Shown here one piece after another: positions 3,493-27,950 of a DNA stretch of 27,950 bases; within the stretch, counting starts at the first letter, position 1, and every line of letters starts with the position of its first letter. A program made the position numbers and the translations under genes. Source of the DNA: a virus (lineage: Duplodnaviria > Caudoviricetes); IMG/VR virus record IMGVR_UViG_3300032462_002418, positions 1 through 27,950 of that record, one strand, 5' to 3'. The notes below the pieces were generated by a model that had not been told where the DNA came from, searched no databases, and was given only the letters and a program-made list of their open reading frames with translations.

Positions 3493-3534
3493 TGGGTGCC
3501 CCAAGTAGTGGTAATAAGCCGACAGGACTAAATC

Positions 3535-3735
3535 TTAGGATTTGGCCCGCTTTGCTTCAGCTTCGCGGTCTTGTGATATAACTTTACCACATGCTAGGCG
3601 TATCAGCCATTCCTCATCAGTGCAATCAAGTAATCGGATTGGGTCGCAGCCGAATAGTTCTCCGAGCCGCGCCGCCGTGACGACGCGGGTGTCATCTACT
3701 AATTCGTCGTAGACCCCTTCGTAGGGTCCACGGCC
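3535..3735 (-). CDS. Tail assembly chaperone C-terminal extension (lambda gpGT-like), probably reached by -1 frameshift
   Basis: Open frame of 66 sense codons (..YEGVYDELVDDTRVVTAARLGELFGCDPIRLLDCTDEEWLIRLACGKVISQDREAEAKRAKS*) in the -1 frame relative to 3699..4244. It has no ATG/GTG/TTG and lies between chaperone and tape measure genes. Confidence 0.75.
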   Translation of the reverse strand, partial: GRGPYEGVYDELVDDTRVVTAARLGELFGCDPIRLLDCTDEEWLIRLACGKVISQDREAEAKRAKS

Positions 3736-4244
3736 TCAATTGTGTCCGAATACCCTGAGGCATCAAGAATTGCAACTGCGGCGGCCTCTACGTGTGGGTC
3801 GAGCCCGAAAAATGCTCGTACCGCTTCTGGGATTGGACGAACTTGGTCGGTCATGTGTAAAACCTCAGTTGAGGCGAAATTAAGTTCATAGCCATCGTTG
3901 TCAAGAACCTCATCATCATTGAAATGAATGCCCTGAGTCGTGTTGCCAACTACCCATGCCGCGAATTTCGTCGCATCCATCCCCGCGCGTGTCTCATCGC
4001 CGGCATTTTTGCGCCAGTGCTTCATTTGCTGCTGAGTGATATTTGGGCTGATGCGGAGTTTCACACCTGGTCGTTCTGGGACGTCAACGTAAACGTCTGG
4101 GCGAATAACTTTTGCCTGAATTGCGGCGGTCAATTTGCTCAATACCGTATTGCCGATATCCTTGCCGGATGTTTTCGCTTTAGCCGATACGGGCTTTTCA
4201 TCCTTTGTCGCTGGCGTGTCGTCTTCGTATAGTTCACTGACCAT
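3699..4244 (-). CDS. Tail assembly chaperone (gpG-like)
   Basis: Position between tube and tape measure genes. SD-like AAAGGA upstream. Ends ...VDPTKGSTTN and overlaps a -1 frame ORF. Confidence 0.75.
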   Translation of the reverse strand: MVSELYEDDTPATKDEKPVSAKAKTSGKDIGNTVLSKLTAAIQAKVIRPDVYVDVPERPGVKLRISPNITQQQMKHWRKNAGDETRAGMDATKFAAWVVGNTTQGIHFNDDEVLDNDGYELNFASTEVLHMTDQVRPIPEAVRAFFGLDPHVEAAAVAILDASGYSDTIEAVDPTKGSTTN

Positions 4245-8792: not shown

Positions 8793-9338
8793 TTATCGGT
8801 CATCGTTTGGTGGGCGCTCTATGACCACACTGCCCAATTCCGCAGCCGGAACCTCAATGGGGACCCATGCCCTTGAGTAGGTGTGTTGGTGGATTTTTCG
8901 CATCTTCACCAGTGTCCCCTCTAGCAGGAGTTCTAGTTCGTCATGTTTCATGCAAAATAGGCGGTCGAACTCGGCCGTTGATACCGCTTTTGAAAAAGAC
9001 AGCTTTCTGACAATCTGCGATAGCCGTTTTGCTACGATGCTGCCCCGCGCCCTATTCATCTGCACATGAAGAATCATCGCCTGTAGGGCTCCACAGTCAA
9101 TATACGTCACTGGTAAAACGCCATTAATCTTTTCTCTGATGTGATGATTCTGTGATGCCAGATAGAACCGTTGATGCCCGTCAATAATTTCCCCCGTCCC
9201 CCGGCGCACCAATAATGGAGACAAAATCCCGTTGTCGGCTATTGACACGGACAGAACAAGGAGGTCGGGTCTGAGGATATATGTGGCCGCCCACTCCGAT
9301 GGCTTAATATCTTCTATTTTTACCATTTCAACTTTCAT
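8793..9338 (-). CDS. ParB/Srx N-terminal domain protein (IbrB-like)
   Basis: SIADNGILSPLLV...IIDGHQRF...MNRARG; directly downstream of an IbrA-like gene, overlapping it. Confidence 0.85.
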   Translation of the reverse strand: MKVEMVKIEDIKPSEWAATYILRPDLLVLSVSIADNGILSPLLVRRGTGEIIDGHQRFYLASQNHHIREKINGVLPVTYIDCGALQAMILHVQMNRARGSIVAKRLSQIVRKLSFSKAVSTAEFDRLFCMKHDELELLLEGTLVKMRKIHQHTYSRAWVPIEVPAAELGSVVIERPPNDDR

Positions 9339-10467
9339 CTAATATCACGTCCACCATTTCCGTTTTTCGTATTGTGTGCGCCCGTGTGCCGGGGCCTATC
9401 GGCGACGCCGATGTTACATTTATTTCGTTCAGCAATAAATTCCGAATCAGCCAACTAATAGGATATGAGTATTCGTCAAGAACATGCTTTTTCCTGAACT
9501 GAGCAACAAATGCCCTCGCTCGGCGCTGTTTTGTTTCTCCAACAATAAAATCATCAATGAACTTTCCGGCCCCACCGAAGCCGTCATGCGAATACATATT
9601 AATGAGTCCATCAACGTCAAAGTCGGGCCACAAGCGCCGTTGCGAGTCAATTCGGGGATACACGGTTACGAGTCGGTCATAAAACTCCGGCTCAGTCGCA
9701 ATGACATCCCCGATTCTGCGAATCGCAACAGAGTGCAGGGGTATGCCGACACGAGTGTTGCTTCCCGTCAGCGCGGCGAGGTCGTAATACTCGCAATACT
9801 CGGCCCCGTGTTCTTCGGTGATAAATTTGAGAACATCGTCCATTTGCCAGTCGTAAATTATTTTAGCAAACCTTAGGGGAATTCCCTTTTTCATTCTGAA
9901 TGGAATGACTATGTAGTTTTCATGCAATTTTTGCACACACGACCTATACCGAATCATTGATTCGTTCGCCCTAACGCCAGTAATGAATGCAACCCGGCCC
10001 GCCTTCCCCTGCATCGTGTAGTAATCAACCGATTCAGGCAAAGGGGCATCGTGGGTCAAGCCAAAGTGGGTTGCATTGATTGCGAAATCTGGCATTGGGC
10101 GAATCCAGTCACCACTTAACCGTCGTCGCTCGCTCCACAAAATGGCGGACTCTCGTCTGCCGAGAATCCAAATTTCCGCACCGTACGGAAGGCAGTACCA
10201 CTCAAGGTCAACCCAGTCATAATCACGTACCTTCATTACGTAATCAATCACCACCGGGGACACCATTTCCTCGTCCCGGAAAATTACTTTCACCGGACCA
10301 AGTCCGCGTTCTTCGTGGATTTCTTTCGCTAGATAAAGTACGGCAGTAGAATCTTTACCGCCAGAAAACTGTATACATACGGTGTCAAAGGTATCGTAAA
10401 CATGACGAATGCGAGCGCGCGCAGCATCCACACAAGACATATCAAGAAACAGACGTTGACGAGTCAC
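9328..10467 (-). CDS. PAPS-reductase-like PP-loop protein (IbrA-like)
   Basis: PP-loop QFSGGKDS, GVRANESMIR and IYDWQMDDV motifs; GTG start overlaps the upstream TAG. Confidence 0.88.
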   Translation of the reverse strand: MTRQRLFLDMSCVDAARARIRHVYDTFDTVCIQFSGGKDSTAVLYLAKEIHEERGLGPVKVIFRDEEMVSPVVIDYVMKVRDYDWVDLEWYCLPYGAEIWILGRRESAILWSERRRLSGDWIRPMPDFAINATHFGLTHDAPLPESVDYYTMQGKAGRVAFITGVRANESMIRYRSCVQKLHENYIVIPFRMKKGIPLRFAKIIYDWQMDDVLKFITEEHGAEYCEYYDLAALTGSNTRVGIPLHSVAIRRIGDVIATEPEFYDRLVTVYPRIDSQRRLWPDFDVDGLINMYSHDGFGGAGKFIDDFIVGETKQRRARAFVAQFRKKHVLDEYSYPISWLIRNLLLNEINVTSASPIGPGTRAHTIRKTEMVDVILDES

Positions 10468-11222
10468 TAAATTTCGCAGTGCTCGGCGATGAAATTCATC
10501 AATCTTTCCGAAGTTGTGTTGCCGTCAATTGACGGGCTACTTCTAAGCCACCGAATAAACGCGTACCACTTAGCCTGTTGCTCAACAGCATCAAAGACAA
10601 TCGTGTATTGGACAATTGCATTGGCGGATTTAGAGCCAGTTGCGACCGTGCTCCCAGTGGCTGCCATCTCGGCATGCGAAAACTCATCCGTTGCTTCAAG
10701 GCTCCCGTTCATTTCCTTGACGAGTTCAGACACTGGGCGCTGGATGATTGGGGGGGTAAACGACGTACTTGTTGCAAGGTCGCTTTCTTCTATTGAGGAC
10801 ATCTCTTCAAGTGCAGCAATATCAAACTCGTCCCATCCGAGCCCTGCCATCAGTTCAGAAAACTCATCGGAGATTTCCAGTAACAAGCCCGAGAGCATGG
10901 CTTCATCGGTCTCACCCAACTGAGTGGTCCGGTTGTCCGCAATCGCAAAAGCAATAGCCCGAGACTCATCACCTTCAAAAAATATACATGCAATGTCTTC
11001 CCATCCAAGCCTTATCGCCGCTAATAATTGGTGGTTGCCAGCGATGACGGTTGCCGTACCGTCATCGTTGCGCCGAGCGACTATCGGTTTGATTTGTCCG
11101 AATTCATAATAAGACGCGACAATGGCATCAACATCACCCTTGTGGGGATTGTTCTCAAGCGGCTTGAGTGACGAAACCGGAACGGCAAGGCCAGATAATG
11201 ACTCGTGGATATTACCCTTCAT
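10467..11222 (-). CDS. ParB-like N-terminal domain protein
   Basis: LKPLENNPH, FGQIKPIV, VIAGNHQLLAA, AIADNRT motifs. Confidence 0.85.
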   Translation of the reverse strand: MKGNIHESLSGLAVPVSSLKPLENNPHKGDVDAIVASYYEFGQIKPIVARRNDDGTATVIAGNHQLLAAIRLGWEDIACIFFEGDESRAIAFAIADNRTTQLGETDEAMLSGLLLEISDEFSELMAGLGWDEFDIAALEEMSSIEESDLATSTSFTPPIIQRPVSELVKEMNGSLEATDEFSHAEMAATGSTVATGSKSANAIVQYTIVFDAVEQQAKWYAFIRWLRSSPSIDGNTTSERLMNFIAEHCEI

Positions 11223-12565: not shown

Positions 12566-13064
12566 TAAAAACCATTGCCACCGTATCAAACTCCCATTTT
12601 TTATCAAGCGCGGCCCAGAGGGCCTTGTCAATAGGGGTTTCTTCAAGGTCGTACTCTCGTAACAGAACTCTATGTTCGTTGATGGCGCGCCGATAGAAAG
12701 CGACATCATCCCATCCGGCTGATTCAAGGACTACATCGGTTTCAATCATCTTGGTTACATCGTCAAGACGTCTTTCAACATGGAATTTAAACCTGTTGAT
12801 TTTTGAGGCTCTACTTTTGTAGGCATGCGATGACTCGTGCATTAATTTTTCTCCGTCAGACCCGAATGCCGCGTAGCGCTCTTTGTCCGTTTTTTCATCA
12901 GCATTAATTTGTTGTATCTGCGACTCAAGGTTTGACGCTAGAGACACCAGGGCATCTCGCCAGCCCCCCCAATTCTCTTTTTGTAATAGCACGGCGCGCT
13001 GCATGGGGGATAGTTTATTTTTGACTTCTTCCGCTACCAATTTTACAAAAGTTTCGTTTGTCAT
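12555..13064 (-). CDS. Hypothetical helical protein
   Basis: 169 aa with a 4-nt overlap to the upstream nuclease gene. Confidence 0.75.
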   Translation of the reverse strand: MTNETFVKLVAEEVKNKLSPMQRAVLLQKENWGGWRDALVSLASNLESQIQQINADEKTDKERYAAFGSDGEKLMHESSHAYKSRASKINRFKFHVERRLDDVTKMIETDVVLESAGWDDVAFYRRAINEHRVLLREYDLEETPIDKALWAALDKKWEFDTVAMVFNDS

Positions 13065-13882
13065 ACAAGTGCTTTCCGTGGTTTGTTGTGTGCCGGGCAG
13101 ATTGGCTTAAACGAGCACCAATTACATAGTTTTGATACCGTTGTTGGGAACTCTCGTGTTTCGCATGCGCTTAAGATGTCGGCGTGAACCGCAACGATGT
13201 CCGATGCGACTTCATCAATTTCCCGTTCCGTTGGTTTTTTGGTGAATTTTATGGCTTCTTTAAGGAATAGTAACTCCAACTCTTCAATAGGTAAATTGGT
13301 TTTTGCCTTTAGCAATATGGCATAAATTGTTAATTGATACCATTTTTCGTCAAGCCATTCTTTTTTCTTTGGGGCCTTGCCGGTTTTGTAATCGCTAATC
13401 CTCAATGCACCCGCATCTGTTAATGAGTACCTGTCAACAAATCCCTTAACGGGAACACTCCCGCCAATTGGGCCGTTGACTTCAATCTCAATACCCGCCG
13501 GAACAATCAACTCGGGATTCTCTATAATCCATAGGTTTTCTAGACACCACCACGAATTCCATCGGAACTGTCGCACCTGTCCACCAGTAGAGAGGACCTG
13601 TTTGACCTGTTCGCCCCATTCGGATTTTGTCCACACATAGGAACACATTGCTTTAGCGTTTGCTAAATTACGCTCACCCGCAGGGCGTGCATAAAAGTGC
13701 TCCAAGACCTCGTGCACAAACGAACCCATCAACAGCGCTTCACTAGTCCCCTCGGGGATTTTGTCCAGCCTGCTGTACTTGTATTTAAGTTTGCATTGCT
13801 TCCATGTTGAAATAGAAGATGCCGATAAATACGGCGGTGGGTTTATTGGGTCAGGTAATTTACTTTGTGATGAGAGTTCCAT
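13061..13882 (-). CDS. PD-(D/E)XK exonuclease, RecB/AddB/Cas4-like
   Basis: LSASSI..WKQC, GSFVHEVLE, GFVDR, ISDYKTGK, QLTIYA, and C-terminal CNWCSFKPIC. The 1+3 Cys pattern matches Fe-S nucleases. Confidence 0.9.
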   Translation of the reverse strand: MELSSQSKLPDPINPPPYLSASSISTWKQCKLKYKYSRLDKIPEGTSEALLMGSFVHEVLEHFYARPAGERNLANAKAMCSYVWTKSEWGEQVKQVLSTGGQVRQFRWNSWWCLENLWIIENPELIVPAGIEIEVNGPIGGSVPVKGFVDRYSLTDAGALRISDYKTGKAPKKKEWLDEKWYQLTIYAILLKAKTNLPIEELELLFLKEAIKFTKKPTEREIDEVASDIVAVHADILSACETREFPTTVSKLCNWCSFKPICPAHNKPRKALV

Positions 13883-14531
13883 GGAAGGACAACCTTACTG
13901 CCTCGTCATGGAGTGCCTTGAGCATCTCCACGGGGGCGTCGGTTGCCTTACGAGGCTTTGGCAGGTCTCCTGCAATCTCAAGCCACTTGCTGTTCATCTC
14001 ATCTTTCTGTTCCTTGTTGAAAGTTTTGCTTAGTGCCACAATCGTATTGAATGCTTCAATCGCTTCGTCCGATACAGCCGGTGCGTCCATCGCTAGCTCA
14101 ATCTCTATCGCATCATCAGAGCGAGCCAAGTACAAAGCAACGCCAAGTGTTTGTGCTGCCTTTTTCAAAGCATCCGACACCGCGCCCTTGTAGTCATTGC
14201 CCAAATCAACGATGGCACCAGCTTTGGTGCGGTTAATTTTTTGCCCACCAATTCCGTCGCGCACCACGCGCCGAGCATATGCACCCTCACTCTCGGGGAC
14301 GGTATTCCATACAAGGCGAACACGAGCGATTACGAAATCAGTATCAATTGCATCGCGTTCGCACATCTCTACCGTGAAAGACCACTGGTCGACGCCGAGG
14401 GTTTTATTCAATCGGTTGATTACCTCGCTCACTGGGATGTAGGTGAGGTTCGTGCCCCCCTTGCTTAAGTTCCGTTCCATTTCTGGTGGGAATGCCTCAG
14501 TTAATTGCTGATATATATCAGTTGTTGTCAT
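13860..14531 (-). CDS. Rad52/Rad22-family (Sak-like) single-strand annealing protein
   Basis: LTYIPVSEVINRLNKTLGVDQWSF and KGAVSDALKKAAQTLGVALYL motifs. Confidence 0.88.
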   Translation of the reverse strand: MTTTDIYQQLTEAFPPEMERNLSKGGTNLTYIPVSEVINRLNKTLGVDQWSFTVEMCERDAIDTDFVIARVRLVWNTVPESEGAYARRVVRDGIGGQKINRTKAGAIVDLGNDYKGAVSDALKKAAQTLGVALYLARSDDAIEIELAMDAPAVSDEAIEAFNTIVALSKTFNKEQKDEMNSKWLEIAGDLPKPRKATDAPVEMLKALHDEAVRLSFHGTLITK

Positions 14532-15045: not shown

Positions 15046-16350
15046 CTAACAGATGATACTCACTCTTTTCCTCTGCGGCAACCCCAAACCGGTTAAATGT
15101 GTAAACGCACCAGTCGCAGAGTCAACTTGGTCGTCGTGGTCAACGGCTTCAGGAAATGAGCATAATTCGTCCAACCACGCCGTCAACCATGCCCCCCTAA
15201 GCAACCTGACGTTGCCGTTGGCGACCGCAGCCGCAAATGGACGGGCGCGGGTTAATTTGTCGCCCGTTGCCCGCATCCCCCCAAAATCAAACCCAGGAAG
15301 AATATATCTGGCATATTGGTCAATAATAGCCTTACCAGACGAACCCGGTTCTTGCTCCATGCGGACCGGAACCCCATGACCGTCCTCATAGGCGGTTTGA
15401 CTCACCAATTGTTCGACCTTCTCCCCGCTAACCCGAGCGCGCTTGACATCCAAAATGTACGATATGCCCTGGTCAAACAACATCAACGTACCAACGGTCC
15501 AGTCGGGATTCGGATTACTGGAACTTGGCTCGGTGGCGGCAAGGTCCCAAAATCTAACCGTTCTAGCAGACGATGTAATTTGCGGAATTTCATGTTGGTC
15601 CATAATGACCATTGATGTTCTGTCAAATAGGCTGCCGAGGGTTGTCGCCCACCAGTCCCCCTCTTCAAGCCGTTTTCTCTCAACGGGGTCCAGGGCTTGA
15701 AGGGCCTGTCGGTACGAGACAGCATCAATTCCGGGGTTATCCGTCAATTTGGACGGAACAAATATGCGATTCTCGGAGATTCCCTCAACGATGAACCGCT
15801 GTCTAACCCAATTGGGCGCTGGGTTTGAGGCACACCTCATCCTGAGCGGGACCTGTGAAAGCGGACCGCCAGATGGACGGCGCAAACGAGAAAACAGGTA
15901 CCTATAGTCCGATTCTCGGATTTCCGTAACCTCGTCCATTCCGATGAATTGAAATTCGCTGCCCTTATAACGCAGATAGTCATCTTTATTATTAAGGTAA
16001 CCGAATGTTACGCGAGCACCAGACGGGAATGTGGCGATGAAACTGTTGTTGTTCCAGTGGACATCATCGTACGCTGCGACCCATGTTCGGAAACGGTCCA
16101 TGAGAGCACCGGGGAGCGAGAGGTCGGCAAATGTGCGCCTGAACAAAATTGCAGAGTACCCAGGGACATCTACGTACTGAAGCGCCGCCATTAATAGGGC
16201 GCTGGATTTGCCGCCGCCTGCGGCACCTCCGAATAGGGCCTCAAGTGCGTAACACCTGAGAAACACCCGTTGGTTTAGCGACGCATCTTCAGGGCAATAC
16301 GGTGCTTCCTTGGGTTCGAGGTATTCAAGTACTTTTTCCCAGTCGGGCAT
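15046..16350 (-). CDS. terL: Terminase large subunit
   Basis: Walker A GGAAGGGKS, Walker B FIGMDE, coupling motif ASNP, nuclease motifs WDLA and HDDQVDS. Confidence 0.95.
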   Translation of the reverse strand: MPDWEKVLEYLEPKEAPYCPEDASLNQRVFLRCYALEALFGGAAGGGKSSALLMAALQYVDVPGYSAILFRRTFADLSLPGALMDRFRTWVAAYDDVHWNNNSFIATFPSGARVTFGYLNNKDDYLRYKGSEFQFIGMDEVTEIRESDYRYLFSRLRRPSGGPLSQVPLRMRCASNPAPNWVRQRFIVEGISENRIFVPSKLTDNPGIDAVSYRQALQALDPVERKRLEEGDWWATTLGSLFDRTSMVIMDQHEIPQITSSARTVRFWDLAATEPSSSNPNPDWTVGTLMLFDQGISYILDVKRARVSGEKVEQLVSQTAYEDGHGVPVRMEQEPGSSGKAIIDQYARYILPGFDFGGMRATGDKLTRARPFAAAVANGNVRLLRGAWLTAWLDELCSFPEAVDHDDQVDSATGAFTHLTGLGLPQRKRVSIIC

Positions 16351-16418
16351 TGTGTCTCCGTTTACAGTGTCCTCCTAGGTTAGACCATGATAATGGACTA
16401 CAGTAGTAAGGAACAATT

Positions 16419-16601
16419 ATGAACAAATTCATCGAGGGCACAAAAACGGCATTAAAAAATCGCAATACTGTAACAAATTTATTAATGGCATCATTTATAC
16501 TGTGTACGGCTATAGGCGCTGGTCTCATATTCCCCCCAGCGGGATTAATCGTGGCTGGCATTACATGTGGGATTCTCGGAATTCTGTTAGGTCTTGAATA
16601 A
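16419..16601 (+). CDS. Small membrane protein preceding the portal
   Basis: 60 aa with two hydrophobic segments and SD AAGGA. Small membrane ORFs are common just upstream of HK97-type portals. Confidence 0.75.
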   Translation: MNKFIEGTKTALKNRNTVTNLLMASFILCTAIGAGLIFPPAGLIVAGITCGILGILLGLE

Positions 16602-16603
16602 AT

Positions 16604-18583
16604 ATGGCATGGAACTCGTCTAGGAACAAGGGCCTCGGTCCATCGGCACTAAAGTCCCTGATTGGGCCTGGCGCGCCCATCGCACAAAACATGGGGTTGG
16701 CTGGCAAGGCGTACACGGACTCATGGGACATTGAACGTGCATACAGAGAAGGGATGCAACGAGTTACATGGGTTGCAAGATGCATTGATGCCATTGCTGG
16801 CAACCAGGCCCGCCTGCCCATCATGCTACGAAAAGATAACTCTCCCGATGGCGAAATAATCTCACGCAAAAACGCCAAGAAATCATCGCTTCTTGAGGTT
16901 CTAAATACCAAATCAAACATTGGCGAAAACTCATTCATCTTTCGTTATCGGCTTTCATCCCAATTACTGCTTGGTACGCGCGGCGCATTCATTGAAAAGG
17001 TACGGGGTCGCAACGGCGAGATTATAGGGCTGAACCTTCTCCCCCCGCAGCACACCGCGCCAATCCCTGATGCCAAGAAATTTGTCTCCGGATATGAAGT
17101 AACAATGCCAAACGGCGGGGTAATCGTCATGAGGCCGGAGGATGTCGTGTGGGTACGCAGACCTCACCCGCTTGACCCGTATCTCTCACTTACCCCAATG
17201 GAGTCGGCTGGTATTGCCATTGAAATTGAGACCTTTGCAAAACTCTACAACCGTAATTTTTTAATGAACGATGGCCGCCCAGGCGGGATACTCGTGGTCA
17301 AGGGCGAAATCAGCGATGACGACAAGAATGAGTTAAAGAATCGATTTAGAGGTAATTTGGCACACACGGGCACGACAACGGTTCTCTCTGCGGACGATGG
17401 CGCCGATTACGTTGACACCAGTGCATCACCACGAGATGCCGCTTATATTCAAATGCGGCAAATTACCAAAGAGGAAATTCTCGCATCGTTCGGCGTGCCA
17501 GAAACGGTTATTGGAAATGCGGCCGGTAGAACATTTAGCAATGCGGCCGAGGAAATCCGAGTGTTCTGGATGGAAACAATGTTGCCCCATCTTGAGCCAC
17601 TCGCTCGCGCCCTGGACGAACTTGACCCCGACAATTATGTGGACTTTGATTTAAGCGAGGTCCCCGTATTGCAACTCTACAAACAGGAACGTGAAAGATA
17701 CTCAAAAGATGAATTGTCTCAGGGTCTCATAAGTGTCAACGAATATCGGCTTGCCAGCGGAAGAAAAGAAGTAGATGCCGACCTTGCGGATTCATTGTTA
17801 ATGAACCCGAATCTAACCCCAATTGCAAACACAAAGAAAAAGATGGAAGAACCGCCAGTGATGATGGGCGGAGAGGGCGGTGCGCCTCCTCCTGGAATGC
17901 CACCAGAGGCTCCACCGGGAATGCCATCAGATGCCCTGCCACCAACAGAAGGGGCGCCTGACCCCAGCACCATGGCGGGTGCACTTGCTGCCGCAGCATC
18001 CGGGGTTGCGGGTGGTGCCCCCGAGACGGCAATTGAGCCAACGCCGCCAGGGTTGGCGGTCGCATCCGGCCCGATGTCGTTCAAGAGTGAAGAAATGGAA
18101 AATGCCCTTGAACGGTGGACTCAAATCCTAGACAGGTCACTTGAACGGGTTCTGGAAAGACAGCAACGAGTGGTTACGGAAAAATCGGCAGGCGCTAAAT
18201 CCAGAAAAGCGCTATTTGCTGGGACCCTTGACATAGAGTCAATTTTCGGCATAGATGTTTGGGGAAAACAAATGGACGAGGACATCAAACCCGTTCTATC
18301 CGCAATCATCAGGGATTCAATGGAGATGCAACAAATGCCCGTTGATGCAACGGAGGTTTTTGCGAAAGCCAACACCCATATGCTCAATATCAAAGAAATA
18401 AATACGGACACACAGTCACAAATCCGAAGCGCTATTACTAGGGCGACATCGGTTTCCGGGGAAGAGGCCCGTCATGAGTACTTTAGGAACGAGATAGTTG
18501 AAATATTCACAAATGTATTAGGCAAGGTTAGATTCCAGGTTGTTGCCAACGAGGCACGACAGGCATGGGAGCAAACCATTTAG
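16604..18583 (+). CDS. HK97-family portal protein with long C-terminal extension
   Basis: WVARCIDAIA, LLLGTRGAFI, NFLMNDGRPGGIL, EEILASFGVP, FSNA and ISVNEYR motifs, then a Pro/Gly-rich linker and a helical C-terminal domain of about 165 aa. Confidence 0.93.
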   Translation: MAWNSSRNKGLGPSALKSLIGPGAPIAQNMGLAGKAYTDSWDIERAYREGMQRVTWVARCIDAIAGNQARLPIMLRKDNSPDGEIISRKNAKKSSLLEVLNTKSNIGENSFIFRYRLSSQLLLGTRGAFIEKVRGRNGEIIGLNLLPPQHTAPIPDAKKFVSGYEVTMPNGGVIVMRPEDVVWVRRPHPLDPYLSLTPMESAGIAIEIETFAKLYNRNFLMNDGRPGGILVVKGEISDDDKNELKNRFRGNLAHTGTTTVLSADDGADYVDTSASPRDAAYIQMRQITKEEILASFGVPETVIGNAAGRTFSNAAEEIRVFWMETMLPHLEPLARALDELDPDNYVDFDLSEVPVLQLYKQERERYSKDELSQGLISVNEYRLASGRKEVDADLADSLLMNPNLTPIANTKKKMEEPPVMMGGEGGAPPPGMPPEAPPGMPSDALPPTEGAPDPSTMAGALAAAASGVAGGAPETAIEPTPPGLAVASGPMSFKSEEMENALERWTQILDRSLERVLERQQRVVTEKSAGAKSRKALFAGTLDIESIFGIDVWGKQMDEDIKPVLSAIIRDSMEMQQMPVDATEVFAKANTHMLNIKEINTDTQSQIRSAITRATSVSGEEARHEYFRNEIVEIFTNVLGKVRFQVVANEARQAWEQTI

Positions 18584-18689: not shown

Positions 18690-19193
18690 ATGAATCAAGA
18701 AATAAAATACAAATCTGGAACTGGTCAGGTCAACATTGACGAAGCCACGGGGATTGTTGAGTGTTTCGTAGCCGGTATCGGCAATAAGGATTCCGTTGGT
18801 GACATCGTAATCAGTGGTGCGTTTGCCAAAAGCCTCACCAGGCGCAAGCCAAGAGTCGTGTGGGGTCACAGTTGGAACGACCCAATCGGCAAAGTTCTTG
18901 AAATGTACGAAGTTCCACTGGGCGACCCGCGCCTTCCAGCCAAAATGAGAGATGCCGGCGTAGGCGGACTGTATGCAAAAGTCCAGTTTAACCTTAACTC
19001 CGAAAAAGGCAAAGAAGCATTTGCAAGCGTCGCTTTTTTCGGCGAAGACCAAGAATGGTCAATTGGTTATAAGACACTTGACTCAATTTTTGATGCCAAT
19101 CTGCAAGCAAATGTGCTTAAAGAGGTTGAACTTTACGAGGTTTCTCCCGTGCTCCATGGGGCCAATCACCTAACTGGCACAATTTCCATCAAA
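18690..19193 (+). other. HK97-type prohead protease domain (peptidase S78-like), aa 1-168 of the giant ORF
   Basis: DSVGDIVISGAF, VVWGHSWNDPIGK (catalytic His), EWSIGY (catalytic Ser), LYEVSPVLHGAN. Lies directly after the portal. Confidence 0.92.
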
Positions 19194-22100
19194 CACGCCG
19201 AGGAGACCCCATTAGTGACGGGGAATCCGTTCGCCAGCATGCTGCGGATGATTTCACCAGAACAGATGCCCCGCATTATTGCAGTGCCAGCGTCTACGGA
19301 AGGCGAAGAAAACGGAGAAGAGGATATTTTCTCGGAAGGACTGGCTCAAAAACTTTCAAAGGAGCAGCAGGGTAAAATTCAGCAAGAACTGTCAGAGCGG
19401 ACCAACTCACAAGTAGAAATTATTTCAGCAACGGAAGGTTCGTTGATTTTCAAGCGCACCGAGGACAGCGGAAAAACATCAACATTCAGAGTTGGCTATC
19501 ACACGCCAGATAATTATGAAACATTTATGTTTGGCAAACCAGAGGCCTATACATCTGTCGTAAAACCAGAAGTAGAGCAAAACATCGTGACAAAGCCAAA
19601 CCCAGACGAATTAGTCGTTGTGCCAAATGCGGGTGCGGCATACAGAAATGATGACGAAGACGAAATGAGTTCGTTGCTTGATGCTGTTAGTTCATCGTAC
19701 GGGAAATCTGCCGTTACACACTTGATTGAGTTACCGCAATATGCCATTAAGGATGCACTATCAATGTTGGAACCGGTTTTTCAATATCACAAACTGGAGA
19801 CATACACGTCCGATAAGGGAATTGGTATCAACGGCGTTGTGTCCGCGCAAGCGATGGATGCACTTCAGACAGCAGTTAAGGCCATTGGTCAAACAATCGG
19901 ACAGACCGCTGGAACATTGCGGACAATAGCGCAAGGATTCAACCCCAATGCAATTGACGGTGATGCTGACGGTTTCGCGCAAGACAACACTGCATTCATG
20001 CGCCCTTACATCCCCATCAAGAAACCCAATGTTGACCTACCTGATGTCGGCGGGAAGAAACGCAATGCCACGGAGTTACTGGACAAGCCAACAATAGACA
20101 CGGGTCCAAAATCAACCGTTGACCCCGCAACACTCGCTGGTCAACCGCGTCAAAGGGCATTGGCTGCCGGGACACTACAGCCACGGACGCGCGAAGACAT
20201 GATGTTCCTTGCTGACAGGCGACCACTAAACGCTGGTCTTGCCAAGTACTGGGACATGAACGATTCTGAATTAAATCTTGCGGGTCAAAGGTTACTTAGC
20301 ACCCGTCGCTCAACTGGCGCCGAGGGTCGTGATGCCGTTGATACCGAATTATATAAGGTCTCGCATGAGTTTGCCCGTAGAACTTCCTATGAACAGCAAT
20401 TCGGCAAAAAGTTTGTTCCACCAAAGAGTGCAGCCGCTCCCACAAAGTCGCCGGTACGGGAAGATGCTCCGAAGCCAGTAACGAAACCCGAAACCATTGC
20501 CGCCCGCAAACTGCGCGCCGAACTCGACCAGGAGGAAGAGGACGCCCTAGACGATGACGACAATTACCGAGACAGTCTTGACGAAGATGATGGGGGTGCC
20601 TCACTTCTTGATGGTGACGATTTTGCTTCACGTGGCGATGATAAACCCAAGTACAGCATTGACACGTACAACGCATTCAACGATGCGGTCCGTGACTTGA
20701 GCGAATTGCCAATGACCGATGAACATGAAGACCGGATTTCGGATTTCATAGAAGAAGCAGCGGCGAATATTGCCCCCAAGGACCGTCACCTTACGTCATC
20801 CCCCTTCTATATCGAATACATGCGCGAGGAAGCCATTGCCTCGTTGCTGGGAGATGTCCAATCAGCAGACGACCCATCTTTCCACTACCCCGACATCGCC
20901 GATGCCTGGATTGAAGCCAACATTGCAGATGTAGAACCAGACGACGGATTTGCTTCAGCTGGCAAAAAGAGCTCGTGGGGTGAAATTCTAAGAGCGCAAC
21001 ACCCCGACTTAGAGCGCAATATGGTGGCCCAAGCACTGCGTTCAAGCTTCATGGACGACAAGAACAATAGGTCCCGAATTTTGAGAATGAATGACGAGGA
21101 CCACGCAGACTTCAACAACATGGTGCGCAACGAAGCCCAGAGCATAGTTGATTACCACAACGCAAACGATGAGGGTAATGTCCGCACGGCAACCCTTCCG
21201 GACCATATTACACAAATGATTGATAAGTACGAAAAATCTTTGACGAATTACGAACCAGATGAGGGTCTTGGTTCACGCACTGATACAACGCCGTTTGATA
21301 AAATTGACACAGAGTTCAGCGGGGCACTTGACGGCGCTCACTACGATGCCCAAAACCAAGAATTGCATGTCGGTTTTAAGCGCACGGATGGCCCAACAAG
21401 TTGGTACACATATTCAGGGGTAACCCAAAAAGAAGTTGATGCACTTCACGATTCAAACTCTAAGGGCAGAGAAATTAACAAAATTAAGGGCAAGCACGAT
21501 GTAGAAAAAGCCCGCCCAGAAACCATTGACAAGATTACGAGCCCGCCAAAGGCGAAGTCCCCCATTGAACCAATAGATGTCGCGGATAGCAAGGCTCTTG
21601 CTTCCGCCCATTACGATTCGGGCGCTCAGGAGCTTGTAGTTACCTACAACGGGCCCGACGGAGAACCGGGCGGAACATATATTTACGAAGGTGTAACACA
21701 AGCAGATGCGGATGCATTTGACAGTGCTCCGTCTAAGGGTCGTGCAATTAATGAAATCAAGCGCACCAAAGCATTCCGTAAAGCCAATGCCGATGAGGTT
21801 GAAACCAGAGAATCAGCGCCATCGTTGGACTGGGCTTCAGCGGACCCAGACGACAACACAATAGAGAGTGGCTCTGGGTTATCGTACGAAATTCAAGAAA
21901 TAAGCTACGGCGGCGAGTTCAATGTCCGTGTCGGCAAGCGCACAAACAGTTATGCCGATGGACCCGGGTTTGATGAAATAGAAGAATCACCGACATTCAC
22001 GAGCAGGGAAGCCGCTCAGAGTTGGGCCGAAAGATACGACCACGAGGTTGTCCTCAGTGAACAACGAGCCGACAAACTCGCAGATGGGCGCACCGAAAAG

Positions 22101-25100
22101 ATTGATGTCTCACGCAGTTCTGCTTTGGAAAAAGCATCATGGAACGACCGCGACCAGGAACTGACGGTTAAGTACCGTGGCGGCGGAACCTACGTTTACG
22201 AGGGCGTGACCGAAGACGATTTTGATGACCTGAATACTGCCAAGAGCAAGGGCGCGGCAATCAACAGAATCAAGAAAACGCACACCTTCCGCAAGGCCGA
22301 TGAAGGTCTTGCTTCGCGCGGCGATGGTATGCCCCCGCAAAGTTATTTTGAGCCGCCCGACTACGACGAAGTAGAAGTAACTGATGACGACATGGACGAT
22401 TACTTTGAGAATAATGTCTACGGTATGGATGACGGAGAAAATGAGTTCCTAACGCGTTACTTCTCTGGTGGTCAACTTGGCACGGGGATTGCACCACTGG
22501 ATACTGAATCCGACCCTTACATGGAAGTGCTATTTGATAAGCGCCCCGACTACAAAACCACGGATAGGGCGCTTGTAGAAAAGCGCATCGCTGAGTTCCA
22601 ATCGTATCTTGAAGAGGGTCGACGGCGTTCGTACCGTGCCAATCTTGAAAGAAAGAAAAATCCAGATAAATACGAACAGGCGTACCAGGATTGGCTGGAT
22701 GCATCCGTTGACCCCGATGATGTTGGGCAGTATCTCGCTGATAACCCGGAGGAATACGACGGCGGTTTCGGTTCACGTGGCTTTGGTCGCGCTTATGACG
22801 AGCCACCAGATGACTATGATTTTAATAATGACGACTACGAGGAATACTTTTTTGACAGAGTTTATGACGGAAACGGTTCGGTTCTACGTGAATCGGAGGA
22901 TGAATTTCTAACGCGTTATTTCTCCGGCGGTGAACTTGGCATTCTTAATGCCGCCGATGAGACCGACCTGGGTTATATGGAAGAACTCCATAATAAGCGC
23001 CCTGACTACAAAACTACGGATAGGGCGCTTGCAGAAAAGCGCGTTGCCGAATTCCGTTCATACGTTGACAAAATAAATACACGGGATGCATTTTCTAATC
23101 CAGAAATGGAGAAGGCTTTCCGCGATTATTTCAATCGAGTAACCGATGCTGCGGACTACGACGATTTGATGGAGGTCGTAGAACGTAGGGGTGGGCGTAG
23201 CCGCTACGATAGTTTCGGTTCACGTGCATCAACGGAACAGTGGCCGACACCGTACGGCGATGAGCCAAGTGAATTCAACACCCGGGAAACACTAAGCCAA
23301 ATCGGCCGAGGAAATCTCGGGGCAATTTCTGGCGGGCGCACAAAGATGCGTGGCAATGAAATGGTTCTTCCTGTCAACAAGGACCAACAGGTAATTGTTG
23401 GATATAACGGCGGCGCTGATACTTATTACGTGCGCGCAGAAAAGATTATAAATAGCGGCAAGGACAAGGGTAAGAACCGTGTTCTCGCACAATGGAACGA
23501 TGTTTATGCCGAAGATGTCGGTGAAACCGCCTACAACGCTTCCCTGAGACCAGAATACCTAAGCGATGACAACAAAACTTTCTGGGAGCCAGCCCTAAGC
23601 GGTTCGGCTATTAACAAATTGGTTGACAAGCAAACGGGCAAATATTACGGCGCAGACGATGATGGTTTTGCCTCACGCGAGAGCATCCAAATCGACGAAA
23701 ATATACTTGACTTTAACGAACTTGACCGCGACACACAACGCGATTGGTTGCAGGACTATTACGAAGAGTTCGGAGGACTACCCCCAAGTAATCGGAACCA
23801 TGATTCGGATGCCGCGGAGGAAGAGTGGAATCGGATAGCGCAGAAAGAGCGCAGTGCGATAGCCGAGGAAATTCTTGCAAGGGTTGATGCTTTGCGTGCA
23901 GAAGGGGCTGACGAAGGTAATCCATTCCAGAAAAACGGCAACATACTTTATGTAGAGGAACTCGTCAAAAATGTCACGAATGTTGAATCGTCTCAAATTT
24001 ATGAGGCACTAGAAATACTTGAACGCTTTGATAATGCAGGCGAGGGTTTCGCCTCACGTGGCAAGAAAAAATGGGACGACCTATCTAGCGATGAGCGCTG
24101 GAACTTAACAGAGAGCCAGTTTGAGGAAGCAGAACGAATTCGGTTTGAGGAACTCTTTGACGAGGGGTGGCCCGACGACGAGATGACCGACAGGATGGAT
24201 AGTCCCCGCCTGACCGAAATTGCAGAAGAACTCGCAGAAGCCGCTTATGATAAAGACGGCGGCGGTTTCGCCTCACGTGGCAACACGTCTCCTGGTAACA
24301 GATTTGACAAACAACATTACGATGAATTCAGCAACCTCTTAGAAGAGGGCGGGATTACTAGCCTGCCCGTCAGCGATGACAATGTTTGGGATGCACTCAA
24401 CGAACGGGTTATGAGCTACGGAACAACTGGTAGTCGGCGAGATAAATGGAACGAAGCTGAACGCGACCTTATTAGACAAATGTCCAGTGACCAGAATAAC
24501 GGTAAAGACGTAATATCGGAATACAGAGACATCGTTGATGCTTGGCTTGCCGATAAATACCCGGACGATGATAAATTGCCGTTTTTCAAGGACGAAGAAC
24601 CTCTTGACCTTGACAGAGATGCATTCACGGAGCGGGCAAATCGTGAGGGCTTGGCCTCGCGTGGTGCACGCCGTTCAACTGCCGAAATGCTTGATGAGTC
24701 ACGCAATCTTATTGAAGACCCGTCTCGTTTCCGCAAGCGCGGTTACGAACTCACCGAACTAAATGATGCCGACAATGCACAACGCGGTCTTGACGGACTT
24801 CTTGAATACCGCAAACAATTAATTGAAGCACGCAACCGCGCCGCTGATGAGATGGGGACGGCAAATGGATACAACGGTCCACCGCGCGGTAAAAACTCGC
24901 GTAATTACGACATCATTGAGCAAATTGCGGCCGGCGATGACGATGATTGGACCCTGCTAGACGAGTATGGGTCTGCAATCCAAGCCGCTGATGATGTACT
25001 TGATAAGTACCGCGCAGACCAACAGTTGGCGAGAGACAGAGAAGAACACTCATCGGGAATCTGGAGCGAGTTGCAGAAGCACGGAAGGGCGAATGTTGAC

Positions 25101-27950
25101 ACTGACCTAGACCACCCAAAGTGGGGAGCAACACACGAAGAACAAATAGACTCAATGAGGGATGAAATGTCGTCTCATCTTCTCGGCGCTCGTGACATGG
25201 TTACGAACATGCCGCTTGACGATAACGATAATGAGACACTTAACGACTATGACTATATAAATTCAGAGCAAATCGCACAAATTGACGAACTCGATAAGAA
25301 GATTCGCAACGCGAAATCCCCTGATGACATAGATAAACTTAGTGACGAAGTTGACGCGATAGTCAGCCAACTTACGGACCAAGCCGAGGAACAGTATCGC
25401 AGGAATGAGGCATTCCGCAACTACGAAATGGTCAGCGCCCCGGAGGAAAGTGAATGGAGTGAGGCCTATCCGACCGACCTTTATTCGTTTAGTGGCGGAG
25501 ATGATGACAGTTTCGCCTCGCGCGGCACGGGGTCAAAAAAGTATTCTCCTTTTGGCGAAGGTCAAATAGCGCAACACATGGATGAACTTGAAACTGGAGG
25601 TCGTAATGCCGATGGACCTCTGCCACAACAATATAATCGCCGTGCCAAAACAATTCTCGATAACTGGAACAGCCTAAGCACTGAAGAAAAAAGACAATAT
25701 ATCAATTTAGCCGATGACGATGAATACAGCGATGATTTGGGGGACTTGGGTAGCATTGAGGAATTTGTCAGCGCACTAGAAACAGCGTACATGGATTCTC
25801 CCGGTTACGAAGATGACCGCGCGTCATACATGGGTTCCGGTGGTGACGATTTCGCCAGCAGGGGCGCTCAGCCAGATTATTCCTCAATAGAAGTTGTTGA
25901 TGTATCTGGTTCAAGTGCTCTTGAAGATGCCTATTACGACCCAGAGGTATCAGAACTGATTGTCATGTATCCCGGTGGAAGAATCTACATTTACGAGGGT
26001 GTAACTCAAGACGACCTCGCCGAATTCCGCGACAACACCAGCAAGGGTCGTGCTATTAATGACATTAAGCGCACGCACTCTTTCCGACGGGCCGATGAGG
26101 GAGACAGGGGAAATAGGTTCGCGCGCGAAGGTTCAGATGTCGCTCAAGAAATGGAAAAAAATCAACTTGATTCAATCTGGAATAGACTAAAACCAGAACA
26201 CCAAATCAGTTATCTCAAGAGGGTAACGGACCACGCAATAAGCAACGGTTCTGGCGAGTCAGCAGACGACCTTGTAGAAGCCGCCAAACGACGCGCACTC
26301 GACGACAGAGAGATGGCATCGCTAGAACGCCAAGCCGACGCCGCCGGATTGGGTGGTCGCAAAATTGATGTTTCCTCAAGCCAAGCCTTGAATTCAGTCG
26401 CGTACGATAAGGACAATCGGGTTCTATCGGTTGAATACCGTGGCCGCAACGGTGAGGGCACTGGCAAAATCTACGACTACGCCGATGTCCCAGAGTCTGT
26501 AGTAAGCGATTTGGAAAACGCTGACAGTCGTGGTGGTGTTCTTCGGACCATTCGCGACGATTACGAGTTCACAACCCGCGATGCACTCCCGGCGCACGCT
26601 TACGAAGGTTTTGGTTCACGCGATGATTCCAATAAGCCAGACCCAATTGATGGCATATTTGACGATGCTTCTACCGAAGCAGAATACCAAGCCCGCATGG
26701 ACGCGAGACGAGATGCACGCCGCGCAAAAAGTCCAGGCGGACTCACTCCGCCTCAGATAACTGCTAAAAAGCGGGCGGAAACTAGGGATGCGAGGGAGCG
26801 TGAAAGAGTAGCCGCTGAACGCGCAAACTGGACTCCAGAAGATTGGGCAAACCTAAACGCTGACCTTGAAGAAGATAGGGGCCGCGACGAAGCAGGCGAC
26901 GCCCGCAGCGGTTTTGCCTCACGTGGAAGAAATCCGCAACGCGGCATACGACGGGGCAGACTCATTGATAACGACAACACATTGAGCAAACTTCAAGAAC
27001 AAATGGAGAATGACCTTGACGACGGGGACGCCGTTAATAACTTTGCCCTTGCCGTCACCGAAGCAGTTATCCCAAGCGGGACCGGAAACCCACGACGACG
27101 CGAAGGGCGCGGGTTCCAGGCTGAACAGATGGACCAACTTGACGCTATTCGTGATTCACTAGAGCGACTCGGAATTGAATACCTAGCTGGTCGCCGCGGT
27201 CGTGGGCGAGCAGTCGATGGCGAACTTGCGCAACGTTGGGTAATCACAGATGCAGACGGGTTTGTATATGACCTAGACAACGGAACCGTACCGGCGCTCG
27301 CGTGGGCAGGAATGAGCCGTAACGACAGGGCTGCATTTGCAAATCAACAAATTGACAGAGTGCTTGCTGGTGGTGGATTTAATTCCCGAGACGAATTGGG
27401 CCGCGGTGGTGGTCGCCCAAAAGATGACCCATTAGCCTCATTTAAGGATTTACCCGAAGGCGCAATAGTCACACTTGTAGGCGACGAATTTACAATCAGC
27501 GGTTCTGACGGTTTTGGTTCCAGATTTACATATGGTTCTGAAACCGGCATCAAAACAAAAGATGAAATGTTTGAGTACCTCAATGCGCAATTAATTGAAG
27601 CCATTGAGCAAGCCGACCCAACATCTTGGAAAATGCCGTGGCGCGTTACATCAATGCCAAATAACCCGACCACCAAAAAACCTTATTCTGGTTCTAACTT
27701 TATGACACTGGCGATTATCGGGTCTGCGCGTGGGTACGAGAGCAAACAGTGGGCCGGATACGGACAATGGGAATCAGCCGGTGGTCAGGTGCGCAAGGGC
27801 GCTAAAGGCGTGCCAATTTTTGTTCCGATTCCGTTTAAATCAAAGGACAAAAAAGGCACCCTTGACCCCGCAACGGGCAAAGTAGCAGAGCGCAGTGGAA
27901 TGTCGTGGAGGGTGATTCGGGTTTTCAACCGCGATGAGGTTGATGGTCTT
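18690..27950 (+). CDS. Giant multidomain protein (>=3087 aa, runs off the right edge): prohead protease + linker-separated modules + 5 KTSC + ArdC-N
   Basis: Translated by hand from the ATG at 18690 (MNQEIKYKSGTGQVNIDEATG) to the window end (..RVFNRDEVDGL) with no in-frame stop. Missing from the ORF track because its stop codon lies outside the window. Confidence 0.93.
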   Translation, partial: MNQEIKYKSGTGQVNIDEATGIVECFVAGIGNKDSVGDIVISGAFAKSLTRRKPRVVWGHSWNDPIGKVLEMYEVPLGDPRLPAKMRDAGVGGLYAKVQFNLNSEKGKEAFASVAFFGEDQEWSIGYKTLDSIFDANLQANVLKEVELYEVSPVLHGANHLTGTISIKHAEETPLVTGNPFASMLRMISPEQMPRIIAVPASTEGEENGEEDIFSEGLAQKLSKEQQGKIQQELSERTNSQVEIISATEGSLIFKRTEDSGKTSTFRVGYHTPDNYETFMFGKPEAYTSVVKPEVEQNIVTKPNPDELVVVPNAGAAYRNDDEDEMSSLLDAVSSSYGKSAVTHLIELPQYAIKDALSMLEPVFQYHKLETYTSDKGIGINGVVSAQAMDALQTAVKAIGQTIGQTAGTLRTIAQGFNPNAIDGDADGFAQDNTAFMRPYIPIKKPNVDLPDVGGKKRNATELLDKPTIDTGPKSTVDPATLAGQPRQRALAAGTLQPRTREDMMFLADRRPLNAGLAKYWDMNDSELNLAGQRLLSTRRSTGAEGRDAVDTELYKVSHEFARRTSYEQQFGKKFVPPKSAAAPTKSPVREDAPKPVTKPETIAARKLRAELDQEEEDALDDDDNYRDSLDEDDGGASLLDGDDFASRGDDKPKYSIDTYNAFNDAVRDLSELPMTDEHEDRISDFIEEAAANIAPKDRHLTSSPFYIEYMREEAIASLLGDVQSADDPSFHYPDIADAWIEANIADVEPDDGFASAGKKSSWGEILRAQHPDLERNMVAQALRSSFMDDKNNRSRILRMNDEDHADFNNMVRNEAQSIVDYHNANDEGNVRTATLPDHITQMIDKYEKSLTNYEPDEGLGSRTDTTPFDKIDTEFSGALDGAHYDAQNQELHVGFKRTDGPTSWYTYSGVTQKEVDALHDSNSKGREINKIKGKHDVEKARPETIDKITSPPKAKSPIEPIDVADSKALASAHYDSGAQELVVTYNGPDGEPGGTYIYEGVTQADADAFDSAPSKGRAINEIKRTKAFRKANADEVETRESAPSLDWASADPDDNTIESGSGLSYEIQEISYGGEFNVRVGKRTNSYADGPGFDEIEESPTFTSREAAQSWAERYDHEVVLSEQRADKLADGRTEKIDVSRSSALEKASWNDRDQELTVKYRGGGTYVYEGVTEDDFDDLNTAKSKGAAINRIKKTHTFRKADEGLASRGDGMPPQSYFEPPDYDEVEVTDDDMDDYFENNVYGMDDGENEFLTRYFSGGQLGTGIAPLDTESDPYMEVLFDKRPDYKTTDRALVEKRIAEFQSYLEEGRRRSYRANLERKKNPDKYEQAYQDWLDASVDPDDVGQYLADNPEEYDGGFGSRGFGRAYDEPPDDYDFNNDDYEEYFFDRVYDGNGSVLRESEDEFLTRYFSGGELGILNAADETDLGYMEELHNKRPDYKTTDRALAEKRVAEFRSYVDKINTRDAFSNPEMEKAFRDYFNRVTDAADYDDLMEVVERRGGRSRYDSFGSRASTEQWPTPYGDEPSEFNTRETLSQIGRGNLGAISGGRTKMRGNEMVLPVNKDQQVIVGYNGGADTYYVRAEKIINSGKDKGKNRVLAQWNDVYAEDVGETAYNASLRPEYLSDDNKTFWEPALSGSAINKLVDKQTGKYYGADDDGFASRESIQIDENILDFNELDRDTQRDWLQDYYEEFGGLPPSNRNHDSDAAEEEWNRIAQKERSAIAEEILARVDALRAEGADEGNPFQKNGNILYVEELVKNVTNVESSQIYEALEILERFDNAGEGFASRGKKKWDDLSSDERWNLTESQFEEAERIRFEELFDEGWPDDEMTDRMDSPRLTEIAEELAEAAYDKDGGGFASRGNTSPGNRFDKQHYDEFSNLLEEGGITSLPVSDDNVWDALNERVMSYGTTGSRRDKWNEAERDLIRQMSSDQNNGKDVISEYRDIVDAWLADKYPDDDKLPFFKDEEPLDLDRDAFTERANREGLASRGARRSTAEMLDESRNLIEDPSRFRKRGYELTELNDADNAQRGLDGLLEYRKQLIEARNRAADEMGTANGYNGPPRGKNSRNYDIIEQIAAGDDDDWTLLDEYGSAIQAADDVLDKYRADQQLARDREEHSSGIWSELQKHGRANVDTDLDHPKWGATHEEQIDSMRDEMSSHLLGARDMVTNMPLDDNDNETLNDYDYINSEQIAQIDELDKKIRNAKSPDDIDKLSDEVDAIVSQLTDQAEEQYRRNEAFRNYEMVSAPEESEWSEAYPTDLYSFSGGDDDSFASRGTGSKKYSPFGEGQIAQHMDELETGGRNADGPLPQQYNRRAKTILDNWNSLSTEEKRQYINLADDDEYSDDLGDLGSIEEFVSALETAYMDSPGYEDDRASYMGSGGDDFASRGAQPDYSSIEVVDVSGSSALEDAYYDPEVSELIVMYPGGRIYIYEGVTQDDLAEFRDNTSKGRAINDIKRTHSFRRADEGDRGNRFAREGSDVAQEMEKNQLDSIWNRLKPEHQISYLKRVTDHAISNGSGESADDLVEAAKRRALDDREMASLERQADAAGLGGRKIDVSSSQALNSVAYDKDNRVLSVEYRGRNGEGTGKIYDYADVPESVVSDLENADSRGGVLRTIRDDYEFTTRDALPAHAYEGFGSRDDSNKPDPIDGIFDDASTEAEYQARMDARRDARRAKSPGGLTPPQITAKKRAETRDARERERVAAERANWTPEDWANLNADLEEDRGRDEAGDARSGFASRGRNPQRGIRRGRLIDNDNTLSKLQEQMENDLDDGDAVNNFALAVTEAVIPSGTGNPRRREGRGFQAEQMDQLDAIRDSLERLGIEYLAGRRGRGRAVDGELAQRWVITDADGFVYDLDNGTVPALAWAGMSRNDRAAFANQQIDRVLAGGGFNSRDELGRGGGRPKDDPLASFKDLPEGAIVTLVGDEFTISGSDGFGSRFTYGSETGIKTKDEMFEYLNAQLIEAIEQADPTSWKMPWRVTSMPNNPTTKKPYSGSNFMTLAIIGSARGYESKQWAGYGQWESAGGQVRKGAKGVPIFVPIPFKSKDKKGTLDPATGKVAERSGMSWRVIRVFNRDEVDGL
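21303..22292 (+). other. Three KTSC domains (21303-21497, 21573-21779, 22101-22292)
   Basis: Pattern S.AL..A.[YW]D...QEL.V.[FY]...Y.Y.GV.......SKG..IN.IK, matching the KTSC consensus as I recall it. Confidence 0.85.
25896..26570 (+). other. Two KTSC domains (25896-26087, 26364-26570)
   Basis: SSALEDAYYDPEVSELIVMYPGGRIYIYEGV..SKGRAINDIK and SQALNSVAYDKDNRVLSVEY..IYDYADVPESVVSDLENADSRG. Confidence 0.85.
27561..27950 (+). other. ArdC N-terminal ssDNA-binding domain (DUF1738-like)
   Basis: WKMPW, PNNPTTKKPYSGSN, GYESKQWAGYGQW, GGQVRKGAKG and VFNRDEVDGL: the ArdC-N motif series in order. Confidence 0.88.

Follow-up and report, generated by a model that had tools for sequence, protein, structure and literature searches.

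A giant polyprotein headed by a prohead protease is punctuated by a short repeated peptide at the borders of its modules, and this peptide is probably a cut site of some kind, judging from sequence patterns. It would be a second, lineage-specific cut site; its reader may be a conserved zincin encoded downstream rather than the fused prohead protease, an assignment that we make tentatively. A cleavage role, part of the original prediction, is still the likeliest reading of the peptide, which lies in predicted linkers, marks module borders and is kept in homologues.

Linker peptide and module chain of the polyprotein

The analysed stretch (the window, 27,950 nt) contains the first 3,087 of the 3,834 aa of the polyprotein, whose gene (18690..27950, plus strand) is open at the window end. 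The full sequence with three further linker motifs (19 in total) is supplied by an identical 50.9-kb record, G001, which also adds an MPTase-PolyVal domain (PF18818) beyond the window, followed by linker 17. Genes in G001 are ordered portal, polyprotein, PepSY protein, 1,429-aa protein, small genes, capsid protein. The chain comprises an S78 prohead protease, five KTSC domains, an ArdC-N/metallopeptidase part and modules without known family, for which no name was obtained from Pfam, PHROGs or the ESM Atlas.

The Peptidase_S78 domain (HK97-type prohead protease; aa 21-165, 18750..19184, plus strand) matches Pfam PF04586 with E 6e-11 and 43.2 bits, the cut-off being 21. Its catalytic His and Ser segments are intact, and residues H60, S124 and E150 are invariant in an alignment of 40 sequences. 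The gene is placed between portal and capsid genes, and the capsid protein's N-terminal domain ends in Lys and is putatively cleavable. The portal gene (PF04860; 16604..18583, plus strand) lies directly upstream of the polyprotein; it contains Lys-type sites and lacks the linker motif. Portal protein carries a Pro/Ala/Gly-rich insert, then the Lys-type site SFK/SE (slashes denote putatively cut bonds) and then a C-terminal helical extension, which may be cleaved off.

An earlier reading of the letters had listed sixteen heptamers between nt 20616 and 27527, and all of them were recovered by motif match on the plus strand in the same order and with exactly the same spacings. The pattern [GDS][FL][AGN]S[RA] occurs 16 times in the polyprotein; 2,000 shuffles gave 0.18 matches on average and never more than 2. 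In 17 other ORFs of the window it has two matches, which is the chance level.

The module chain begins at linker 1 (DDFASRG, aa 643, 20616..20636). Linker 2 (DGFASAG, 20943..20963) is devoid of Arg and linker 3 (EGLGSRT, 21261..21281) stands 14 aa before KTSC1. The module with KTSC1-3 (PF13619; 21303..22301, plus strand) has no linker between the three domains and is directly followed by linker 4 (EGLASRG, 22302..22322). This linker and linker 5 (GGFGSRG, 22761..22781) open one each of two tandem paralogous modules (22302..23207, plus strand), in which 63 of 144 aligned columns are identical. Then come linkers 6 (DSFGSRA, 23208..23228), 7 (DGFASRE, 23661..23681), 8 (EGFASRG, 24042..24062), 9 (GGFASRG, 24261..24281), 10 (EGLASRG, 24645..24665) and 11 (DSFASRG, 25506..25526). 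Linker 12 (DDFASRG, 25845..25865), predicted to be disordered, lies 17 aa before KTSC4 and linker 13 (EGFGSRD, 26604..26624) about 11 aa after KTSC5; they enclose a module composed of KTSC4, a helical domain and KTSC5 (identified with Pfam; 25896..26573, plus strand), modelled with pLDDT mostly >88 and one dip to 71-74. After linkers 14 (SGFASRG, 26907..26927) and 15 (GGFNSRD, 27372..27392), linker 16 (DGFGSRF, 27507..27527) precedes the ArdC-N domain (PF08401; 27573..27926, plus strand). The positions relative to KTSC1, KTSC3, KTSC4, KTSC5 and ArdC-N agree with those originally predicted.

The AlphaFold2 model of aa 2370-3087 places all five modelled motifs in or at the edge of stretches with pLDDT<50, the last of them being borderline (block mean 57), and the adjoining domains exceed pLDDT 90. 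None of these motifs is thus buried in a folded domain.

Serine of the motif is encoded by TCA (10), TCG (3), TCC (2) and AGC (1), and arginine by CGT (7), CGC (5), CGA, AGG and AGA, with one Ala in its place. This codon variety had been taken as a sign of selection on the peptide. The motif does hold as a selected peptide signal at module borders, but its codons are less mixed than the background of the gene: the identical-codon fraction among linker copies is 0.46 versus 0.30 for the gene background (p=0.001). The linker copies are therefore also partly related by descent.

Lineage spellings of the linker

Eighty loci with a close protease were fetched as relatives; the whole family is estimated at about 900-1,200 matching viral stretches. 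Among cultured phages, those of Gordonia, Brevibacterium and Streptomyces match best, with approximately 40% identity over the protease only. WhiB was detected in all five long records tested (120-158 kb), so the hosts are likely Actinobacteria and the relatives likely actinophages. Their protease-headed proteins span from about 455 aa to 5,494 aa.

The motif is conserved among relatives as a class. Each genome has one repeated motif: GFAS(R), PLGSR, RLSSG, FSSG, GFSS, GMRS, GM[RS]S, SMRS or STRS, and in more distant relatives GSKSTT, SSRSQR, G[VI][ST]G[KA]M or DSGAM. The same spelling is found in two to five giant head-cluster genes per genome, including genomes where the protease gene is short and without cargo, and it recurs on both sides of the PepSY gene. 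Head clusters of G010 and G011 (L088, L089, L095, L096) extend over about 45 kb from protease to capsid, with four or five giant genes, more than 13,000 aa of cargo and one motif. The distant relative G037 (C1:4009-32384) has the DSGAM linker in a 3,750-aa protease polyprotein and in two more giant genes.

Serine is the sole constant linker residue in the main family. It is preceded by Ala, Arg, Ser or Gly, with the exception of the GSKS lineage, which has Lys. Residue counts were made on 346 long ORFs after removal of redundant contexts. At position x of G[FLM]xS, Ala occurs 8.8x, Arg 7.6x, Ser 6.0x and Lys 0.6x as often as expected. In G[FL][AG]S, the residue after Ser is Arg in 147 of 303 cases (49%) and Lys in only 6 of 303 (2%).

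Codon identity among copies exceeds the background in 8 of 15 genomes, the window genome among them, so a spelling can spread by copying without any change of its reader. No excess was observed in the remaining 7 genomes, one of which has 44 copies. Copying between motifs and selection on the peptide both act.

Candidate readers of the linker

Cleavage could be attributed to several enzymes. The likelihood that we assign to cutting is divided among the zincin, which takes the largest share, the fused S78 protease, and a host protease, which is counted below together with other host and non-cutting readers. Candidate bonds that would fit lie before the hydrophobic residue (gluzincin-like) or before Ser (prohead-protease-like). 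A cut before a hydrophobic residue suits many gluzincins.

The S78 domain is flanked by two predicted sites of its own: IKYK/SG before it (18702..18719, plus strand), with a Lys conserved in 16/16 records, and ISIK/HA after it (19182..19199, plus strand), where K168 is an invariant column in 40 sequences. Sites of the form [FYI]K/x and S[IV]K/x flank the domain in 16/16 records and the junction xK/D is present in 12/12 capsid proteins, all of these having been located by searching for Lys. No linker motif was found in the capsid proteins examined. Unlike the linker spelling, this Lys code is identical across lineages.

Hydrophobic-K-[SAG] sites are enriched in small head-cluster proteins (250 versus 175 expected), neutral in 81 non-head proteins (101 versus 93, 1.08) and depleted in motif-bearing cargo (128 versus 194; 4 versus 11 in cargo of the window protein). 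Because an Arg control is likewise low in cargo (167 versus 219, 0.76), this depletion is moderate evidence. The sites are not depleted in large proteins of a clade without zincin (1.12).

The S78 domain itself hardly varies: across 38 sequences with 8 different spellings, 90 of its 145 columns are invariant, and identity between spellings is 74-97%. The original prediction had proposed a cut after SR, with reference to HK97 protease. The separate, unchanging Lys code, used at the protease borders and at the capsid junction, together with the near-invariant S78 disfavours such a cut by the fused HK97-type protease. Moreover, only Ser is constant in the linker, Arg follows it in just half of the cases and Lys hardly ever, and a basic residue is not required at one fixed position, as an S78 site with basic P1 would demand.

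In a broader form, the fused S78 protease would cut the linkers as slow, sub-optimal Lys sites, either before Ser (F-A/S, M-R/S, S-K/S) or after Arg (F-A-S-R/G). We regard this as rather unlikely, although it has the advantage that the protease resides on the same chain. HK97 protease cuts at K103/S104 (PMC10275583), and SPN3US gp245 prefers Ser at P1' (PMC10052503). The series GSKS, STRS, GMRS, GLSS and GFAS is built around a constant Ser, F-A-S-R and L-G-S-R share the hydrophobic-x-x-basic spacing of Lys sites, and S78 beside its catalytic His is not the same in clades with and without the motif. Against this reading, the active-site segments of S78 are invariant despite the differing spellings, and neither of the two candidate P1 positions admits Lys in the main spellings. 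Genomes of the GMRS type have Met in 85% of linkers, whereas Lys is preceded by Phe, Ile or Val in their own Lys sites, and most RLSSG, GMRS and STRS sites are without Arg after Ser. Inspection by eye revealed no charge complementarity between variable positions of S78 and the spellings.

The preferred candidate, the zincin, is encoded by the giant gene that follows the PepSY gene, second downstream of the polyprotein. HExxH occurs at approximately aa 480-600 in 16 of 17 records (G022 nearly duplicates G025). Only G018 is without it, and in that record no motif is enriched. The HExxH residues and those of an ExxxE further on (H296, E297, H300, E377, E381), a pattern expected of gluzincin metallo-endopeptidases, do not vary among 15 aligned domains, which share just 16-29% identity. 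A profile search retrieved 99 relatives. Of the 88 that exceed 1,000 aa, 84 carry HExxH where it is expected; among the remaining four, two are N-terminally cut yet have HExxH and two are without it.

The structure model of the zincin (pLDDT 69.7) is nearest to zinc endopeptidases, most top matches being zinc peptidases. Its best match is the lethal-factor catalytic fold (VIA Z 8.8, which is modest; rmsd 5.1, 192 aligned), followed by Pro-Pro endopeptidases, aminopeptidases and thermolysin with Z 5-6. Foldseek gave no PDB match at E<=0.001, Pfam gave no match and a sequence search of solved structures returned nothing credible; against viral models, Foldseek retrieved one orthologue and weak, capsid-associated zincin-like entries. 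The linker motif is nearly absent inside the zincin domain and peaks just before it. The zincin's own upstream motif is disordered (pLDDT 29-37) in this single-chain model, which is uninformative on binding.

Distribution of zincin and motif was compared in 50 loci with enough sequence. Both were present in 33, zincin without clear motif in 8, neither in 9, and motif without zincin in none. Zincin presence was scored from HExxH in the local gene, since a genome-level profile search was insensitive (it missed L260). The nine zincin-less loci form one S78 subclade that is also different beside the catalytic His, so the correlation reflects roughly a single event and cannot tell zincin and S78 apart. 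Clusters of spelling on the zincin tree only reflect kinship. In G[VI][ST]G[KA]M relatives, S78 is still 72-75% identical and the zincin far diverged. The GSKS lineage counts against the zincin as reader: its linker has Lys before Ser, like an S78 site, and is without the hydrophobic residue. In G037, which is outside the table of 50 loci, the DSGAM motif is strong (20 SGAM-type copies) and 53 kb contain no clear zincin orthologue (best weak match E 1.5e-4). Polyvalent proteins commonly carry zincins as cargo (PMC5512222), so being conserved is not enough to mark this zincin as the processing enzyme.

Alternatively, a host factor or a non-cutting partner might read the motif, as a site for a host protease after ejection, a site of Ser modification, or a docking or unfolding tag for packaging or tail passage. 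The constant Ser and the S/T exchange in [ST]G[AK]M lineages suit modification, a spelling that goes with the genome might go with the host, and G037 has the motif without clear zincin. We nevertheless consider such a reader unlikely: Ser is not exchanged for Thr in the main family (0.9x) and a docking tag need not mark every exchangeable border. Phosphorylation of linkers by a kinase-like gene of the cluster was rejected, because this gene has no conserved catalytic Asp in 12 aligned copies.

Module exchange, known systems and neighbouring genes

Modules change position, gene and lineage, and they bear the spelling of the genome in which they reside. Alignments of the window protein with its relatives have 122 distinct ends, of which 43 lie no more than 10 aa from a motif (random mean 14, p=0.0004), an excess partly inflated because the motif itself aligns. 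The position of the ArdC module varies widely, and it is found in another gene as well. A motif lies at most 45 aa upstream of ArdC-N modules in 39/39 cases (background 16%) and at most 50 aa downstream in 21/38. Among 240 borders shared across spelling groups, the partner's own spelling is present in 114 and the foreign one in 5, with both in 1 case; the partner shows no spelling in 120. As many of these are vertical relatives, the count means that spelling follows genome, not that each border is a transfer.

The clearest example is L184, an RLSSG genome, which shares with G001 a single block of 1,095 nt and 77% identity covering the ArdC module. Inside this block, GFGSR of G001 (linker 16) is replaced by RLSSG between homologous flanks, and the block extends as far as the next motif. 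This respelling is one case, and gene conversion could account for it. A strict search for respelled motifs with homology on both flanks gave 7 uninformative pairs and missed L184, as the frame restarts just upstream there. An in-frame TAA (L184:4352-4357) lying shortly upstream of this respelled linker interrupts the polyprotein frame, through sequencing error or as a real split.

Genes for a PD-(D/E)XK nuclease (PF12705) and a Rad52/22-type annealing protein (PF04098), both assigned by Pfam, are located at 13061..14531 on the minus strand and are candidate machinery for module exchange. Together with tail and recombination genes, the terminase is on the minus strand and is transcribed away from the portal and head genes on the plus strand (window region 15046-18583).

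That the motif is mainly DNA micro-homology left and spread by module shuffling, with the peptide a merely tolerated flexible linker, would fit the codon identity above background in eight genomes, the homology blocks ending at the motif and the annealing and nuclease genes, but is very unlikely, as seven genomes lack codon excess (even the one with 44 copies), TCN and AGY serine codons are both used, the motif is always in frame as the same peptide, and Lys is excluded though one transition away from the frequent Arg.

With the zincin as reader, the observations could be united in the following scheme. The polyproteins would be packaged in the head, as gene context and the pattern of Lys sites suggest, and S78 would cut Lys sites during head maturation, freeing cargo chains from their leaders. 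By avoiding Lys sites, cargo would be kept in large pieces for as long as the head leaks. Once released from its leader, the zincin would cut at the linkers, either late in the head or following ejection, and the packaged polyproteins would be split into separate working modules. Zincin and spelling would drift together, and recombination at the short motif DNA would shuffle modules and help to spread a spelling. With less confidence than the assignment itself, we put forward a further reading of this scheme: a two-protease, two-code head, in which S78 matures the shell at Lys sites and a co-evolving zincin reads a private linker password, cutting dozens of exchangeable cargo modules apart. 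The password would act as a compatibility standard, imported modules needing to be respelled to work in a new lineage.

The closest known counterpart is the group of polyvalent proteins, for which Iyer et al. (2017, PMC5512222) propose release of domains by embedded peptidases, likening them to viral polyproteins. Judged by its domains, the protein described here is itself a polyvalent protein. According to the main text, they too are long multi-domain chains encoded among head genes, with ArdC-N (PF08401) and zincin MPTase (PF18818) domains; here PF13619 is also present five times. The assemblin-like peptidase is described there as always C-terminal, whereas S78 is N-terminal here (aa 21-165). 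That main text contains neither "linker" nor "KTSC" and names no repeated border motif (PMC5512222).

T4 gp21 and phiKZ gp175 process internal head and ejection proteins. SPN3US gp245 does so too (PMC10052503). In these systems a prohead protease similarly cuts many head proteins at a short motif, several copies of which can occur per substrate. These use one code (AXE) and remove N-terminal propeptides; here two codes are present, and the second one punctuates module chains and varies while the protease does not. HK97 gp4/gp5 shares the S78 domain and the Lys junction of the capsid protein (NVK/DV here, K103/S104 as given for HK97 in PMC10275583). In contrast to the present arrangement, gp4 is a small stand-alone protease; here the linker motif is absent from capsid and portal proteins.

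Polyproteins of eukaryotic RNA viruses consist of one translation product with repeated sites and a co-encoded protease. The chain described here would be alike if its linkers are cut, with the differences that it belongs to a DNA phage, that its cargo is exchangeable, that the signal is common to several genes and that there is no homology.

We found no report of these linkers in the open-access literature, and the accessible portions of PMC7824862 and PMC4351075 contain nothing on the motif. What the present analysis adds is the lineage spellings, the separate code based on Lys, the module that was respelled and the candidate zincin. Dismantling of polyvalent phage proteins has been an open proposal since 2017, without named sites. 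Candidate sites are now explicit, numerous and lineage-specific, with two candidate enzymes, and the question can be reduced to an assay of cognate versus non-cognate peptides. If the zincin is the reader, nature would have supplied in this family a collection of orthogonal protease-site pairs, on which plug-and-play protein evolution could be modelled. For many unknown modules, domain boundaries can moreover be read off the motif.

Several other genes of the head cluster deserve mention. The PepSY gene (L082:9338-10723, minus strand) encodes a conserved protein that hardly any relative lacks. It has Cys-rich segments, and Lys-type sites border its two PepSY-like domains. A role of PepSY as dedicated zincin inhibitor was rejected, because the gene also occurs in the zincin-less clade. 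The kinase-like gene (L082:2025-4013, minus strand) encodes a conserved head-cluster protein of 650-680 aa (only 396 aa in G018), kinase-like in its C-terminal half and with an outline that we take to be HipA-like.

A short conserved RCP(P/E)G...(AN/GG)xFTD is found near the N-terminus of several head-cluster proteins (L082:5029-9318 and 2025-4013, minus strand), and DGDGDG-like motifs occur in leaders; both are candidate packaging tags. Elsewhere in the window, genes for a ParB-like, a PAPS-reductase-like and again a ParB-like protein (Pfam) are consecutive at 8793-11222 on the minus strand, a row that resembles phage DNA-modification clusters.
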